From NCBI GenBank assembly GCA_023213215.1, contig CP096136.1:3322724-3386723 (forward strand): a stretch of DNA of 64,000 nt. The letters are read 5' to 3'. The notes below the pieces were generated by a model. That model had not been told where the DNA came from. It saw nothing but the letters and a program-made list of their open reading frames with translations, and searched no databases. The translations under genes were made by a program, and so were the position numbers. This document shows positions 23,860-30,762 of the stretch, piece after piece. Each line of letters starts with the position of its first letter. Within the stretch, counting starts at the first letter, position 1. The DNA comes from Flavobacterium sp. JAD_PAG50586_2 (GTDB taxonomy: Bacteria; Bacteroidota; Bacteroidia; Flavobacteriales; Flavobacteriaceae).

Positions 23860-23940
23860 TCACTTCCCCGGATTATACTGAGAACAATAGCCGTTGGCAA
23901 TGCTCGTCATGTGTTTCATCTCTAGCTCTTTTGTTTTTCC
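23860..23940 (-). pseudogene. 3' remnant of the Cys-rich gene at 30370-30710
   Basis: Reads KHMTSIANGYCSQYNPGK* versus KHMTSIANGYCFQHNPG in the intact gene; differences are mostly at third codon positions. Confidence 0.85.
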
Positions 23941-23945
23941 TATTT

Positions 23946-23970
23946 GTCATGCTGACGAAGGAAGCATCTC
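23946..23970. repeat. REP-like palindrome gtcatgctgacgaaggaagcatctc
   Basis: GTCA-headed imperfect palindrome (atgct...agcat) of the type common in flavobacterial intergenic DNA. Confidence 0.6.
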
Positions 23971-23982
23971 ATCCGCTTTGGT

Positions 23983-24011
23983 AACCACGCGAAGTGATTC
24001 GCGCGGGAGCG
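23983..24011. repeat. 29-bp hairpin repeat, copy 1
   Basis: aaccacgcgaagtgattcgcgcgggagcg; 27/29 identical to 30734-30762; cgcgaa/ttcgcg stem. Confidence 0.85.
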
Positions 24012-24064
24012 GGGGTAATTTCCGGCTAAGTAAAATAAAAACCAGCTATGTCGCAAAACGGCTT

Positions 24065-24363
24065 TTATGTGCTGTGTTTAGCTTTAATAAGCGTCCTCAC
24101 AAAGACATAAACTATATGAGTAGAAACAATTAATCCACCTCCAAAAATCCAAAATGCTAATGTAATTCCTAATGCCGGCATTCCACATCGTACTTCACCT
24201 TCTTTAAACTCTGGCATAAAAAATCCTGGCAGTACAAAAAATCTAAAACTAGACCAAATGCTAAGAGTAAATATTTCCAATTACTCCTATTGTATTTGTC
24301 AAGCAAAATATAACCGCAAACTTGGACAATAAACATTAAAACACAAATATGTAATGGCGTCAT
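24065..24363 (-). CDS. Small membrane protein (~99 aa), frameshift at ~24235
   Basis: Joining ORFs 24169-24363 and 24065-24280 gives three TM segments and a CGMPALGITLAFWIFG motif. Confidence 0.7.
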
Positions 24364-24369
24364 AATTTA

Positions 24370-24447
24370 GAAAGTTTTTTCTAGTGTGATTTCGCACCCG
24401 AGCGAAGCGAACGGACGAAGTAATTACAAGAAACGGCTGTTAGTGGC
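24370..24447 (-). mobile_element. Degenerate attC-like recombination site
   Basis: Minus strand: GCCACTAAC (RYYYAAC inverse core) 15 bp after the stop of the upstream gene, then AGCCGTTTCTTGTAATT, shared with the 25555-25687 element; the right arm is decayed. Confidence 0.55.
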
Positions 24448-24461
24448 TGCTCTTTATTCTA

Positions 24462-25514
24462 TTATTTAGTTTTAAATCTTTCAAATGTGTTTCCGTTAAA
24501 CTTAAATGTTCCGTTTTCGGGTGTTCCAAGCCAAAGATTGCCTTGATTGTCCTTATACATAGAAACTAAATTAACTGTCATTTGAGTTCCGTCTTTAACT
24601 GCATAATTTGTAATCGTTTTGCCCGTCATATTTATAAACTCCCTTGTCCCAAGTTGTCAACCAAATATTTCCACTACTGTCTTCTACAATGTGGGAATAG
24701 TAGATATATTTATCTCCGCCAAATATTTTTGCATTTCCAATACCTTCAGTTTTTCGATATTGAAGCCTGTCGCTTTTTGCTTGTCTTTTCAAAATCAAAA
24801 ATATACTTGTGCCAAGTGTTACAAAACCAAAAACTGCCTTCTTTATCTTCAAAAATAGAACGAATGCCAAAAGTGCCGCCATTAGGTACATAGGTCAAAT
24901 CGTCTTCGTACATCCATTTTACTGTTTCTCCATCAAAACGACAAGCTCCAAAAACGGAAGTGCCAAACCATATTGCACCTTTTCTGTCTTTATAAATGGA
25001 ATACACTTCGTAAGGACTAAAGAACGAATTGACAACTCGTGGATAAATTTCATCGTGAAGATAGTGTTTGGGAAACTCCAAATTATATAAATTTTTTCCA
25101 TCATAGCGATAAGCACCTTCATTCTTTTTACCCAATATATAAAACCACAAATCATTCGGTTCTAATTTCCATTCTTTGCTTTTAATTGGTTGCAAAGTCG
25201 TAAATGTCTTTCCGTCAAATTTGTTGATACCACCGAAAGTTGAAATAAATATATTACCAAATTTATCTTCTTGAATTTGTCTTGTGGTGTCGTTGGCAAG
25301 TCCATGTTTTGTTGTAAAATTGACAATCGTTTTTCCGTCATAAACGATACACACCTTCTCCATTGCTACTAAACCAATAGTTGTTTTTCGTGTCTTGAAA
25401 CACATACCATAAATGTTTGCCGAGTTCATTTACAGATTTTCCAATAGTCTTTTGTCCGTTACACGAATTGAGTAATGTAAGTAATGTTAAAAATAAAAAT
25501 AAGTTCTTCTTCAT
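24462..25514 (-). CDS. Lipoprotein made of two-component-regulator-propeller (Reg_prop-like) beta-propeller repeats, several frameshifts
   Basis: Lipobox LNSC; repeated I.ED..GN.WF motifs (FQDTKNNYWF, IQEDKFGNIF, IYKDRKGAIWF, IFEDKEGSFWF, IVEDSSGNIWL); no kinase domain. Confidence 0.75.
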
Positions 25515-25554
25515 TTTCTGATTGTTCAATGCTTATGGTGTCGCGGTAGAGTTG

Positions 25555-25687
25555 CCATTAACGTTCCGTCGCTTCTCGTCAGTTGAACTTCGAAACTAAT
25601 TATTTTCTGTTAAAGATAAAAATTCCTGCGAAACGTAAACGTCAACTTATCACAAAATTCGCAATTGCGAGAAACGGCTCCTATGTG
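25555..25687 (-). mobile_element. attC-like site (~133 bp imperfect palindrome)
   Basis: Minus strand: left arm GCCGTTTCTCG-CAATTG pairs with a right arm whose reverse complement is GTCGCTTCTCGTCAGTTG (one extra base); ends AACGTTAATG (GTT core); inverse core reads CACATAG instead of CACATAAC. Confidence 0.65.
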
Positions 25688-25971
25688 ATGCCTTTATTTT
25701 TTGAAGCATTTGACTTTCTATTTTCAACACTTCTATTTTTTTTGTTTCAGTATTTGTAAAAGTAAGTTATGTATTCAGTATAGTTATTTACGCATTTGTA
25801 AAAGTTAATTGGGCATATAGTAAAGTTATTTTATTATTCATAATTGTTATTTACGTATTGATAGAAGTTAATTTGTCATTCGTTATTGTTGTTATTGGAT
25901 ACACAAAAGTTAGTAAGTTATTAATAACTGTTTTTTTAGAATTGCAAATAGTGAAGTTAATTAAGAAAAAG

Positions 25972-25995
25972 CAAATAGGGCTAACGCCCTATTTG
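25972..25995 (-). terminator. Terminator of the GLPGLI/barrel operon
   Basis: caaataggg/ccctatttg perfect 9-bp stem; U-rich tail on the minus strand. Confidence 0.7.
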
Positions 25996-26087
25996 TTTTA
26001 TTTTTTATTTCGAAAAATTGAATTTTACGATTGTTTTATAAAATTTTTTAAAAATTGTTAATAAATCAAAACTAAAAAAATAGTAAT

Positions 26088-28747
26088 TTAAAACCTAAAT
26101 TCCACTTTTAAAAGCACATATCTTGGCTGTAATTTGTATTCTGTTTTTGAAGAATTTATATCCGAAATGCTATAATTTCTAAATGTTTCTGTGTTAAAAA
26201 GGTTATTACCAGAGAGAAAAAACGTTAATTTATTTTCCTTAACTGTATAACGAGCTTCTATATCTAAAAAATAGTATTGGTTAACATCTTTGTCTAAACT
26301 GCTAAATAAATAACGTTCGGATTGTAATTCAACATTAAGTTTATCACAAAACGTAAATGACAAATCCAAGAAACTCATATTGTCTGTAAAGTTGTTTTTT
26401 ATGGTAGTTTCTACTTGATTGTAATTCCATTTTGATCCAATATGATAGTTGAAAAATCCTTTAAAACCTGAACGTAATTCAAAACCATATTCCGCTCCAA
26501 AATTTTTGACTTCACGTAAATTTGAATTATTAATTATGTTTTTAAAATTGGTTTTATTTGCACCTAATGTGATTTTTAAATTAGATTTTATTTGTTTAAA
26601 ATAATAATCTATGTTTGAGGATATGGATAAATATTCCCTGTCTTTTATAATGATTTTTTCAGATTGTGAATAATTTTGAGTTACAATAGAATTTGTGCTA
26701 TAAAAATCATTGCTTTTAGAGTACAAAACGAAGGTGTTTGCAAAAAACTTTTCGCCCCAACTGCCGTAGGTATAATTTAAAATAGCATTTAATGTATTTA
26801 GTTGATTAAATTCTGCTAAACCTTTAGAAATAGAACGAAACCCATTTTGAACAAAGCCAGAATAAACATCTAAAACACCTGCGTTATTTGTATTATATGA
26901 ATACGATGTAACTATTTTATTTTTTTCGTTTATATTCCAATCTAAACCTATTTTTGGAATAATAAAAAAGGGATTTTGATTGGTTTTAATGCCGAAATTT
27001 TCTAAATGATTAAATAGCTGATGAAAATCTGATTGCGTTAATAATGTATAATTACCAAATTTGAAACGATATTTAGCAGACAGATATAAATCATTAGTTG
27101 AATAGGTTAAATTGTTTTGATAGCTACTAGGTAAAGCTACACTAATATCGTTGTTTAATAATTCAAAGCGAGTGTCTAAATTATCTATTCTTAATTGATC
27201 ACCTAATTTTATTTCTAATAAATCGTCATTTTTCTTTTTGTCTAGTAAATGTGCTTCAATGCCTGCAAACTGCATTTTATTTTGACTATATTGCTTGGTG
27301 TTGTTTGCGTTTTCAGTAAATAGGTCATTAAAAATAAATTGATTAACGGAGTAGTTTTGTGGTGTTTTTTCATTGATATATCTACCTGAAAAAAGCAAAA
27401 CTTTATTTTCTTTAAATTTATTGGAAAAAACTAATTTTTGGTCAAAAAGTTGGTTGTTACTAGTCAGTTTTTCGTTTAGTAAATCGTTGTTGAATAGTAA
27501 ATCGCTTCGATTTTTTTCGTTGGTTTGGTTAAGCTTTCCTGTGTATTCTAAAGTTTTATTTTTAGAAATGTCATAGGTTAAATCTATTTTGCCAAAACCT
27601 GTAATCTGTTTTTTTCTTCCAACAAAGTTTTCAGTATTTACGAAAGATGTTGTCCCTACTGAAAAGGATTGTACACTATTTTTAAAAAAATCATTTTCAT
27701 CGGTGTTAAGAAAGCCTAATGTTTTGAGTTTTACTTTTTCTGAAAGTGTAAATATACTATTCAATGAAAGCATTTCTGCATTGTTAAAGTTTACTCTCTT
27801 TTCTTTTAAATTTGGTAAATCTGAACTTAATCCTAAGAGCGTTCTCGCCGATTGATTATCACCAATACTTCCAGGGTCATCAAAACGATAAGGTCGGATT
27901 AAGTTATTAATATCTCCAATTGCATCAACTCCAATATTATTAAGATTGGTTAAAAAATAATATTTACTTTTTTTCCAAAATTTATTAAATTGCTTCTTAC
28001 TTCATAACGATTTTCCGAAATAAGACCATAGGCTAAAGTTGCATTGCCAAACCATGTGCGCTTGTAATCTTCCTTTAAAGTAAGATTTAATGCAACTTTT
28101 TCGCTATTTTCAATTCCTTTTAGATGTTTATTGTTAGAATAGTGTTGATATAGTTCTATTTTATCAATTGGGTTTACAGGCATGTTTTTAGTTAGAATTT
28201 TATATCCTTTTTCAAACATATCATCTCCATCAATCATTACTTTTTCAATTTCTTGGTTACCAACTTTTATAGTACCGTCTGCTAAAACATTTAATCCGGG
28301 TATTTTTTTTAATAAATCCTCAACTACTTGTTCATTTCCTTGCAGAAAAGACTTTGCGTTAAATACAATAGTGTCATTTTTAACACTGATTGATTTTTTT
28401 GGTTCAATGAAAACCTCATTTAGTTCATATATTTTATCTATAAGATTAAAAGAAACTTTAATTGATTTATCATTTTCATCAATTACTATTTCTTTCTTAT
28501 TTTCTTCAAACTCTAATGAAGTTGCAATAATTGTCAATCGCCCCTTTTCATTAGTTGAGATTTTAAAATTTCCTTCATCGTTCGAATATGTAAAAGAGAT
28601 GATTTCATCGTTTTGATTTTTTAAAATAATAGTTATTGAGTTTAGTGCTCTGTTAGTTTTAAATTGTTTAACATTACCTTCGATAACCGTTTGAGAAAAA
28701 ATTAAAAAATTAAATAATAATAATGTAATTGTGAAATATTTTCGCAT
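26088..28747 (-). CDS. Outer-membrane beta-barrel (TonB-dependent receptor-like) protein with carboxypeptidase-regulatory-like N-domain, frameshift at ~27970
   Basis: Signal peptide; DTIVFNAKSF...VEDLLKKIPG...IEKVMIDGDD plug-like motifs; one restored A joins the two ORFs; C-terminal QPRYVLLKVEFRF. Confidence 0.85.
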
Positions 28748-28751
28748 TTTT

Positions 28752-29555
28752 TTATTTGAATTCCATTTGCGTTCTTATTTCATTTTGAGGCTCTTTATTT
28801 TGAAATGTTGAAAAACTAAATTGGGATTTATATTCTCTATTCTTATTTCTTGCTGCAATAATTGAAATTTTATCTTTTATTGCAGTTACATATATTTTGT
28901 CATATTCTTTAAATGACACCTTTTTGTATTTGAAACGTTTACTGAAATTGTCAGCTAAGTTTAAACTTTTTTCTTTGTAAGGGTAGTTTATTTTTTTTAT
29001 TTCCCATTTGTAAACTTTTTCGGTGTCCTCTATAGATAGTATTAAACCTGGTAATCCGCTAAATTTCCATGGACCAATCGATACAGGTATTTCCAGCGTA
29101 TACCATGCAATATATGTTCGTCCCCTAAAAGTTGTTTGAGCTTTTTTACAATTCATATTATTGAATTTTTTATCCCCCTTTAAAAAAAGCCATTTCATTT
29201 TTGGTATATTTTCATAAACTGAATATGATTTTTTTAAAATAATTTCTTCAAACAGATTTTCCGTTAGTTCGTTGGATAAAGTATTAATGAAAATCTCATT
29301 TGTAAATTTAACCTTCTTATTATCTACAATAATTTCATCATCACTTGAATCATCTGTTTTAAAAATTTTTTCAGTGTTGATAAACTTAGATGTGTAAAAA
29401 CTAAATTCATTCTGAATTGATAAAATGCCATCATAATTATTTACAATAGTTGGTCTATATTTGATAGATTCAAAATATTGTACTTGAATGGCGGGTTTGT
29501 CTTTTTGCTGAGCAAATAAATTACTAACTACTAATATTATATATAAATATCTCAT
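28752..29555 (-). CDS. GLPGLI family protein
   Basis: CKKAQTTFRGRTYIAWYTLEIPVSIGPWKFSGLPGLIL signature. Confidence 0.93.
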   Translation of the reverse strand: MRYLYIILVVSNLFAQQKDKPAIQVQYFESIKYRPTIVNNYDGILSIQNEFSFYTSKFINTEKIFKTDDSSDDEIIVDNKKVKFTNEIFINTLSNELTENLFEEIILKKSYSVYENIPKMKWLFLKGDKKFNNMNCKKAQTTFRGRTYIAWYTLEIPVSIGPWKFSGLPGLILSIEDTEKVYKWEIKKINYPYKEKSLNLADNFSKRFKYKKVSFKEYDKIYVTAIKDKISIIAARNKNREYKSQFSFSTFQNKEPQNEIRTQMEFK

Positions 29556-29574
29556 AAAATAAAGTTTAAAAAAT

Positions 29575-29601
29575 AGAAGCGAAGTGTATTGCTTCGCTTC
29601 T
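29575..29601 (-). terminator. Intra-operon hairpin between the peptide gene and GLPGLI
   Basis: agaagcgaag/cttcgcttct perfect 10-bp stem followed by a U-rich stretch on the minus strand. Confidence 0.7.
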
Positions 29602-29612
29602 TGAATAATTAT

Positions 29613-29834
29613 TTAACCCCAAATGTTAAATTCTGCTATTGCAAGCGCTTTAGCTTCTTTACTTCCACAGCTTACATTAGCAGGGACATAAATATCCCAT
29701 GTGCCTAAATATTGACCCCTAGAATTATACATTCTGTATACACAGTGGTTAGATGAAGCTTGAAGCAAAGTTGTGAAAGAAGATGTAGAAATAAATATTA
29801 CTGACATCAACAAAATTGTTTTAATTGTTTTCAT
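29613..29834 (-). CDS. Small secreted peptide (73 aa, two Cys)
   Basis: MKTIKTILLMSVIFISTSS signal-like N-terminus; mature part HCVYRMY...VSCGS...FNIWG. Confidence 0.7.
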   Translation of the reverse strand: MKTIKTILLMSVIFISTSSFTTLLQASSNHCVYRMYNSRGQYLGTWDIYVPANVSCGSKEAKALAIAEFNIWG

Positions 29835-29940
29835 TTATAACTTTTTTCGCTTAAATCTTTGCAAGAGCTTCTGGCTCGTTAAGGCAGTCAAAGATTTTCT
29901 GCGGTTTCTCTCCAATATGGAATTTCTGCCCGTGAACTAA
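29835..29940 (-). promoter_or_regulatory. Structured 5' leader candidate
   Basis: GC-richer patch in AT-rich DNA; aaatctttg(29853-29861)/caaagattt(29889-29897) perfect stem enclosing a gagc-cagaa-gctc hairpin. Confidence 0.45.
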
Positions 29941-30220
29941 TAAGTTCACATAAAAACCACATTGTTTTTTAAATATTCGCGACTATTCTCAAAACAATAT
30001 AATTTTAATTTTTACATAAAATCGTAAGAATATGTCGCTAAAATAGTAGATATAACTTTAAAATAAAAGTAAATAGTTATTATTTTTAAAGTAATTTAAT
30101 GTTTACCAAATAAAGTCGTTAAAGAGGAATAAAAATCGTTAAACGGCACTTTTGTAAGAAATGAGAGATTTATAGTCGTGTTGCTCGAAGGTATCACATA
30201 ACTTATAAATACCAGTAATA

Positions 30221-30330: not shown

Positions 30331-30369
30331 AGGATTTATTTCAACGGTATTGAGATATAAGCCAATATT

Positions 30370-30710
30370 TTACTTCCCGGATTATGTTGAAAACAATACC
30401 CATTAGCAATGCTCGTCATATGCTTGCACCGCGTACCTTTCTTTGTAGTTCCTTTGCATTGCACCGTTTCCTTCTGACCTTGTGCCGTATTGGAAGATTT
30501 AAAACCCAACGCTTTATAATCTTGTGGCCTGCATATCTTGCAGGGATCTAATCCAAGTTCCGCAGCTCTTTCAAACGATATTTCCTCAGACACATTCTTA
30601 ACCATCCTGCAACTGCCCAGATGGTACTTAGCTCCCGAAGGTGTTTTGTATATCTTTTGCGCGGAGGCGGTTAGGGAGAAGAGGAGGATTAGTATTAGGT
30701 GTTTGTGCAT
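30370..30710 (-). CDS. Secreted Cys-rich putative metal-binding protein (Ada-like YH..C...PC..C plus C-terminal CKGTTKKGTRC...YCFQH ribbon, DUF5763-like)
   Basis: Signal peptide; the Cys/His motifs; the remnant at 23860 indicates a true end NPGK* at 30370 (one G missing). As written, the ORF ends at 30336. Confidence 0.8.
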
Positions 30711-30733
30711 GGGTTATGGTTTGTTTGTTGCGA

Positions 30734-30762
30734 AACCACGCGAAGGGATTCGCGCGGGAACG
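30734..30762. repeat. 29-bp hairpin repeat, copy 2
   Basis: aaccacgcgaagggattcgcgcgggaacg; 27/29 identical to 23983-24011. Confidence 0.85.

Follow-up and report, generated by a model that had tools for sequence, protein, structure and literature searches.

What places a beta-propeller lipoprotein gene of Flavobacterium sp. JAD_PAG50586_2 between two elements that resemble the attC recombination sites of integrons, with no integrase gene beside them? The gene lies in a stretch of 64,000 nt, here called the window, which covers positions 3322724-3386723 of a 3.81-Mb genome assembled as one contig (GCA_023213215.1, CP096136.1). An earlier note, made from the window alone, had proposed a decaying array of the CALIN type (cluster of attC sites lacking integron-integrases) from a Bacteroidota cassette system, and this proposal is supported by copies of the site elsewhere in the genome, by their fold, by complements of their R-boxes and by a duplicated cassette. 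Positions 24015-30202 of the window are best described, from their sequence, as a three-cassette cluster that has decayed and has no recombinase nearby. Its cassettes very probably derive from a cassette system that the genome keeps at 1.946-1.973 Mb, which we regard as the best joint explanation of the observations below. That parent system is a variant integron-like platform.

Results

A family of hairpin sites arranged in one-strand arrays

Counts of the core motif AAACGGCT were uninformative, and the motif became informative once extended to AAACGGCTGTTA. Over the whole genome the extended motif is not scattered and forms one-strand clusters at 1.946-1.972 Mb, 412-433 kb and 3.490-3.496 Mb. 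A covariance model (R1), built solely from 20 aligned sites (alignment A2) of the 1.95-Mb array, detects 47 sites genome-wide on the model strand, with a 48th row that is a weak opposite-strand match to the 431.4-kb site (Table 1). The further copies on which the earlier proposal depended therefore exist, about 47 in the genome, one open reading frame (ORF) apart and with the ORFs co-oriented. Family sites are about 136 nt long, start with (variable)TAACGTTCCGCCGC and finish with AAACGGCTGTTA(variable), their AAC and GTT being nearly invariant; the 20 aligned sites fall into two or three subtypes distinguished by the loop. RNAalifold folds these 20 into a stem of 21 bp and shows covariation between subtypes at six of the pairs (TTCTCG with CGAGAA versus TTGGCG with CGCCAA, for instance).

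The fold extends to other genomes, where 63 sites from 20 loci were compared in an alignment fitted to the model, which favours the fold somewhat: 95.9% of cells hold a standard pair, against 68% in shuffled controls and 30-45% when the partners are slid. Compensatory changes occur in 17 of the 21 pairs, and the covariation score is 0.65 versus 0.16 when shuffled. The GTT positions that pair with AAC are conserved in 60-62 of the 63. The family thus shows the imperfect palindrome, the AAC and GTT ends and the hairpin fold of attC sites, and the conserved fold expected by the earlier note is borne out by covariation and compensatory change.

The organisation of the main array is that of cassettes. 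Between neighbouring sites lie one or two ORFs, invariably minus-strand and with stop codons 7-20 nt from the site, and all ORFs other than those of insertion sequences (IS) are on the strand of the recombinase gene. The variable bases beside the AAC of a site are the exact 10-nt complement of those beside the GTT of the site on the far side of the ORF between them, which is the classical relation of a cassette's inverse core to its own start. A 632-nt unit found at both 433 kb and 1.963 Mb is 99.7% identical from the C of AAC to the AA of the next site, and a second duplicated cassette, inside the main array, has boundaries that behave alike. From the boundaries of these duplicates and from the array junctions, the crossover is predicted at AA^C on the model strand (a caret marks the point of exchange), equivalent to G^TT on the ORF-sense strand, and so would lie at the site's ORF-distal end, the position that it has in integrons. 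Taking the plus strand, with its extra bases on the AAC arm, as the 'top' strand of the cassettes was overturned by ORF orientation and by the duplicate boundaries.

At its proximal end the main array meets an attI-like junction, GGTGTATAA^C TTGTTTATATG, about 100 nt from the stop codon of the recombinase gene. The DNA beyond the last cassette (GGTGTATAA^C) is the non-site sequence TTGTTTATATGTATAACTCC, and the attI-like sequence can be written ...TATACATATAAACAAG^TT. This junction recurs at 422 kb with its first 14 nt matching (TTGTTTATATGTAT), and the remaining clusters are also closed by related AT-rich junctions. The 412-433 kb region consists of three sub-arrays, each ending in an attI-like junction (422.15, 427.39 and 433.69 kb) that is followed by a homologous platform of about 220 nt, rich in TTGAAAC and GTTTCAA motifs, with no recombinase gene.

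A recombinase without the IntI insert and its distribution

The gene directly upstream of the main array encodes an Xer/IntI-like tyrosine recombinase of 345 aa with Phage_integrase (PF00589) and SAM_4 domains in Pfam. It passes only the NCBIfam model XerA_Arch/'integron integrase' NF040815 (222.7 bits, cut-off 220) and stays below the IntI model TIGR02249 (218 bits versus a cut-off of 265, with the match in two pieces). Aligned with VchIntIA (2a3v), 19 of its residues (249-267) replace chain residues 182-242; the IntI-specific insert (I2 region), which marks integron integrases, is absent from the protein, and none of 16 further members of the family, drawn from several orders and compared with it, has an insertion at this position. 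The box I arginine and the box II residues are kept (LRHSYATHLL...GH...IYTH). An AlphaFold model (predicted local distance difference test score 85.5) comprises an N-terminal beta-beta-alpha-beta-beta-alpha domain, a four-helix core-binding domain and a catalytic domain; the nearest structures are VchIntIA and then archaeal XerA, in Foldseek matches dominated by the recombinase core. The N-terminal domain (residues 1-55; genome 1973482-1973646, minus strand) has no match in Pfam, and its motif RWS...W is kept by the 18 family members of alignment A4; the domain, with the motif in the form RWS...WHLP, is conserved in 19 aligned members. This domain of about 55 aa is a candidate substitute for the absent I2 function, and the 345-aa protein is the probable catalyst of cassette exchange.

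Homologues with 45-74% identity occur in many Flavobacterium species, in Chitinophaga, Algoriphagus and Pseudopedobacter, in metagenome-assembled Bacteroidales genomes and in one metagenome-assembled Ignavibacteria genome. At 80 recombinase loci elsewhere, R1 gives 81 matches; without exception (81 of 81) they are found downstream of the recombinase gene, on its opposite strand, which is the arrangement in the genome studied here.

The main array is also host to an IS110-family element of 347 aa (NF033542, 205 bits; PF01548, PF02371), present in nine near-identical copies. Its DEDD transposase with a Transposase_20 domain and its fixed target are those of the family; eight copies sit within attC-like sites at an identical point and in identical orientation, between ...AAACCG and ...TTTGTTA, a junction common to all nine copies.

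Decayed sites and cargo in the window

In the window the cassettes read on the minus strand and the model strand of the sites is the plus strand. With filters off, R1 gives a single full match, to which local nhmmer searches add two, so that the window contains one complete site and two fragments. The earlier note had described two hairpins around a single gene: the cassette array stands, whereas its extent grows from one gene to three cassettes (24015-30202), with a half-site at 24015-24069 as a third remnant. Its statement that there is no integrase holds for the neighbourhood, the window having no tyrosine recombinase; the nearest array-linked one, the integrase-like but non-canonical protein described above, is 1.37 Mb off. 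The arm AGCCGTTTCT(C/T)G(C/T)AATT on which that description was built is real and common to both elements, on the minus strand at 24422-24438 and 25663-25679 (reverse complements AGCCGTTTCTTGTAATT and AGCCGTTTCTCGCAATT, respectively), and a third copy of its core, AAACGGCT..TATGTG, is at 24056.

Site 3, the element upstream of the propeller gene, scores 104.8 bits (E 3e-21) with R1, which was trained on the 20 distant main-array sites only, and 98 bits with nhmmer. As had been seen, it is an imperfect palindrome of the attC kind ending in AACGTT; it measures 136 nt, not about 133, and the next ATG is about 45 nt away and not within a few bases. Its predicted crossover, AA^C, is at 25561/25562. 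The GTT of its R-box, on the plus-strand 3' arm, has become CCT (25680-25682), with two of three invariant bases lost, and compared with the family it also has a 2-nt deletion in helix 3 and a C>T change in helix 2. Folding as DNA gives z = -3.1 for an intact family site, and z = -0.4 for site 3, no better than shuffles. We consider site 3 probably inactive.

The downstream element, site 2, does carry GCCACTAAC (24440-24448, minus strand), 13 nt and not 15 bp past the TAA stop codon at 24462-24464. It is no longer a hairpin: only an arm of 27-30 nt is left (24420-24446, nhmmer model positions 111-137, E 0.013), with the loop and the other arm gone and a short GC-rich hairpin repeat (24385-24419) in their place. 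Its R-box is complementary to 25552-25562 at 8 of 10 positions. Of the core mutations that the earlier note ascribed to both sites, the one in the R-box of site 3 is present, whereas site 2 is truncated and not point-mutated. Site 1 is a second fragment (24015-24069, nhmmer model positions 82-135, E 3e-5) that matches the main-array site at 1969019 with 91% identity over 45 nt in blastn; its R-box GTT has become TTT. CALIN elements are defined by at least two attC sites with no integrase in the surrounding few kb, and the window offers one full-model match plus two partial sites found as local matches only; by strict criteria the locus is a single-site remnant of an earlier three-cassette cluster. 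An Rfam scan of the window returned no family at the gathering threshold.

The right boundary of cassette A is placed at 30192-30202 because the R-box partner of site 3 lies there: TATCACATAAC is the exact 10-nt complement expected for that R-box plus the conserved T at the eleventh position, which every other cassette also has, and this 11-mer occurs twice in the entire genome (3.8 Mb). The flank at 30202 resembles the junction of the 3490-kb cluster, C^TTACATATACC, and the first window cassette was probably inserted here, at an attI-like secondary site (C^TTATAAATACC).

The cargo is worn too. The propeller identity of the cassette B gene (PF07494) is confirmed, but the gene is not intact: it is spread over three reading frames, and tblastn with an intact 351-aa homologue needs frames -1/-2/-3/-1. 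In a different species of Flavobacterium (L100) that homologue is itself carried as a cassette ORF, with a site on either side. The cassette C gene consists of two overlapping ORFs in different frames, its stop codon falls within the R-box of site 1, and a Pfam search with this small membrane-protein gene gave no match. Seven IS copies in the genome are 100% identical across 1235 nt; assembly indels are therefore rare, and the frameshifts in the window cargo are probably genuine. Operons paralogous to the cassette A cargo are found at 2.171 and 1.710 Mb, and the 265-aa product of one cassette A ORF (27950-28747) has a Pfam CarboxypepD_reg domain.

Relatives were compared at one genome per species. 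A DNA search of 40 of them matched only the site (up to 90-91% identity over 120-140 nt) and the propeller homologue, with no syntenic copy of the window locus, and an exact-protein look-up of the flanking DUF3575 gene gave no record. The nearest substitutes for a comparison of strains are the cassette common to two arrays of the genome and the propeller homologue in a foreign array. Taken together, the site and cargo sequences suggest that the window cluster is now immobile and non-coding, a relic of the parent system.

Table 1. Positions of sites, cassettes and associated features (window coordinates, or genome coordinates where marked g)
Feature	Position	Strand	Description
Site 3	25553-25688	+ (cassette strand -)	complete 136-nt attC-like site, mutated, subtype A
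Site 2	24420-24449	+	27-30-nt remnant of the cassette B attC, ORF-proximal arm (AATTACAAGAAACGGCT^GTTAGTGGC)
Site 1	24015-24074	+	subtype B half-site: ORF-proximal arm and part of the loop
Cassette A	30201 down to 25562	-	four ORFs plus upstream region, terminator, AT-rich stretch and site 3
Cassette A cargo	25689-30201	-	multigene unit; attC is site 3
Cassette A ORFs	29613-29834, 28752-29555, 27950-28747, 26088-27773	-	
Terminator in cassette A	25966-25999		
AT-rich stretch in cassette A	25700-25960		periodic repeats of about 21 nt
Cassette B	25514 down to 24462, plus site 2 arm	-	propeller gene and site 2 arm
Cassette B cargo	24462-25514	-	Reg_prop beta-propeller lipoprotein pseudogene, three frameshifts (Pfam PF07494)
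Cassette C	24363 down to 24065, plus site 1 half-site; end 24015	-	membrane-protein gene and site 1 half-site
Cassette C cargo	24065-24363	-	membrane-protein pseudogene, about 100 aa, one frameshift
Proximal junction of cluster	30192-30202	+	TATCACATAA^C, then non-attC DNA TTATAAATACC
Junction read on minus strand	30201/30202	-	...TATTTATAAG^TTATGTGATA
Non-cassette duplicate	23866-24012	-	'GC hairpin plus Cys-rich gene' unit with internal deletion; adjoins distal end of cluster
Recombinase, Xer/IntI-like, 345 aa	g 1972609-1973646	-	directly upstream of main array, co-oriented
Sites, main array	g 1.946-1.972 Mb		about 30
Sites	g 412-433 kb		12
Sites	g 3.490-3.496 Mb		4
Sites	g 99.6-102.3 kb		2
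Sites	g 387.5-388.5 kb		2
Sites	g 2.078 Mb		1
Sites, window	25553-25688		1
IS110-family copies	g 1950204-1951438 and eight more		main array, six; 419-423.7 kb, two; 2076105-2077339

Other features of the locus

The AT-rich stretch that separates site 3 from the terminator of the 561-aa gene contains about seven copies of AAGTTA(A/G)TT at a spacing of about 21 nt, resembling an iteron or phased binding-site array. The CarboxypepD_reg ORF and the 561-aa ORF (26088-27773) are separated by 176 nt; at the paralogous loci of 2.172-2.175 Mb the parts matching the 265-aa and 561-aa ORFs stand close together, and the two may be halves of a single outer-membrane barrel gene that has been split.

A GC-rich 29-nt hairpin with a Cys-rich small gene flanks the cluster on both sides. 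The intact unit is at 30367-30762, and the left copy, of which 23983-24008 matches 30734-30759 with 96% identity over 26 nt in blastn, retains only the last 19 or so codons of the gene. A segment at 23876-23905, considered as an inverted attC arm of site 1, is actually the 3' end of this truncated Cys-rich gene duplicate. Short GC-rich hairpin repeats of about 30 nt (23943-23974, 23983-24016 and 24394-24424) have 90-100% identity to sequences in many Flavobacterium genomes, and the three occupy the places of lost parts of sites 1 and 2.

Weighing the alternatives

The elements might be thought to be palindromic repeats or terminators that spread alone, like repetitive extragenic palindromes or miniature inverted-repeat transposable elements, unconnected to cassette recombination. 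They are indeed imperfect palindromes placed right after stop codons, in a region with other short GC-rich hairpin repeats common in Flavobacterium. Such repeats, however, would not predict a 10-nt R-box complementarity specific to each cassette, unit boundaries precisely at AA^C, a strict single orientation within arrays or a constant linkage with one recombinase family across genera, and we regard this explanation as highly improbable. A reading of the sites as repeated copies of one promoter or leader module, which the position of site 3 about 45 nt upstream of an ATG could suggest, is barely credible: sites in the arrays come 7-20 nt after stop codons, stems covary as hairpins in the 63 foreign sites, and the covariance model finds no match at the repeats of about 120 bp around the neighbouring Gabija pair. 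A different matter is whether the window cassettes are still mobile, with the recombinase of the genome acting in trans on site 3 and perhaps also on the remnants. Site 3 does retain its crossover end (AACG, 25560-25563) and the greater part of its stems, and single attC features can be dispensable in classical integrons (PMC5027507). Yet the lost GTT is at a position that nearly all sites elsewhere keep, the stem deletion goes with a fold that shuffled sequences equal, sites 1 and 2 each miss a whole arm, and the cargo genes are pseudogenes, so that there would be no selection for their retention. Continued mobility thus seems very unlikely, if a little less so than an origin as free-standing repeats.

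Derivation of the cluster from the parent system, the reading we prefer, has its own difficulties. The full model recognises just one of the window sites, the matches of sites 1 and 2 being local and 55 and 27 nt long, and cassettes do not typically span 4.6 kb, hold several genes and bring a promoter and a terminator of their own, as cassette A does. The inactivity of site 3 is read from conservation alone, and recombination itself from sequence, with one genome compared per species. A single-strand mechanism would be an analogy with integrons, because this recombinase is without the IntI insert that binds extrahelical bases.

Discussion

We propose a model in which a cassette of the active system comprises one or a few ORFs followed by an imperfect palindrome of about 130 nt with AAC...GTT ends. 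The recombinase would recognise the site folded as single-stranded DNA, cut it at AA^C, on the ORF-complementary strand (that is, at G^TT, the ORF-distal end) and exchange the cut strand with another site or with the AT-rich attI-like site beside its own gene. The window cluster would have been seeded by insertion at an attI-like secondary site and later immobilised by mutation and truncation of its sites and by frameshifts in its cargo. Family membership, fold, synteny with the recombinase, cassette boundaries and decay are observed, whereas the single-strand mechanism, the identity of the cleaved strand, the role of this recombinase as catalyst and the inactivity of the window sites are inferred.

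The polarity of the sites bears on this model. In canonical attC sites the recombined strand has its extrahelical bases on the arm across from the cleaved AAC (PMC5027507). Here that rule does not hold: the arm with the crossover AAC is the longer one, by 3-6 nt, in 63 of 63 sites from other genomes, its extras being a 4-nt bulge right after AACG, one bulged base and a 2-versus-1 internal loop. The sites thus appear canonical relative to the ORFs and the crossover point, yet mirrored in their asymmetry. Given this mirrored asymmetry and the missing I2 insert, strand choice would have to differ from that of IntI.

Among known systems the closest likeness is to the sedentary chromosomal integrons, such as the Vibrio cholerae superintegron with its V. 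cholerae repeats of about 130 nt. Both have co-oriented, mostly single ORFs, palindromes of about 130 nt of the form RYYYAAC...GTTRRRY, a G^TT crossover at the ORF-distal end and an R-box complementary to the start of its own cassette. They also share an adjacent recombinase of the Xer/IntI group, an attI-like junction, satellite clusters of the CALIN or SALIN (single attC site lacking integron-integrase) type, and a cargo largely of unknown function that includes Fic/DOC and similar genes. Unlike its counterparts in those integrons, the Flavobacterium recombinase lacks the IntI insert, has the conserved N-terminal domain of about 55 aa and is encoded upstream of and co-oriented with the array, not divergently, and the unpaired bases of its sites are on the arm of the cleaved AAC and not on the opposite arm. 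An integrase gene that points the same way as the cassettes is found in the 'inverted integrase' integrons of Treponema, Chlorobi and others. The integrases of that group retain the IntI additional domain. In core fold, length and absence of an I2 insert the protein resembles the Xer recombinases (XerA, XerC/D and XerH, with dif sites and folded single-stranded phage attP); Xer proteins, however, use one dif site, where they resolve chromosome dimers, whereas the present family invariably has a hairpin-site array after its gene and an additional domain at its N-terminus. The IS110-family element parallels the IS1111-attC group of that family in its fixed position and orientation within sites, a likeness by insertion pattern alone, its targets here being the Flavobacterium-type sites.

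In the literature we found no description of this Flavobacterium cassette system. For Bacteroidetes, IntegronFinder 2.0 (Neron 2022) reported a single complete integron, in Salinibacter, and otherwise only In0 elements, and a preprint lists Bacteroidota among the clades earlier found without integrons. The insert was called 'not fully conserved' in a subgroup of integron-like recombinases (Smyshlyaev 2021), and the I2 helix of IntI has been described as an acquisition that enabled single-strand recombination (PMC4792948, PMC7790495). Judging from the published surveys, standard integron detection may miss platforms of the present kind. Whether Bacteroidota (Flavobacterium, Chitinophaga, Algoriphagus, Pseudopedobacter and Bacteroidales) and Ignavibacteria carry widespread integron-like platforms, in which a recombinase that never gained I2, or lost it, acts through a distinct N-terminal domain on mirror-image sites as a second structural solution to hairpin-site recombination, is a question on which we are evenly balanced.

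This closed genome presents the full platform: a recombinase without I2, some 30 cassettes that start from an attI-like junction, no fewer than five satellite clusters and a site-targeting IS110 element. The window locus represents the end state of such a satellite, with immobilised sites and eroded cargo. If the platform is active, the capture of genes as cassettes would extend to a major phylum of environmental bacteria and fish pathogens, whose cassette contents are currently unannotated as such, and these sites would offer a natural test of the true requirements for hairpin-site recombination.

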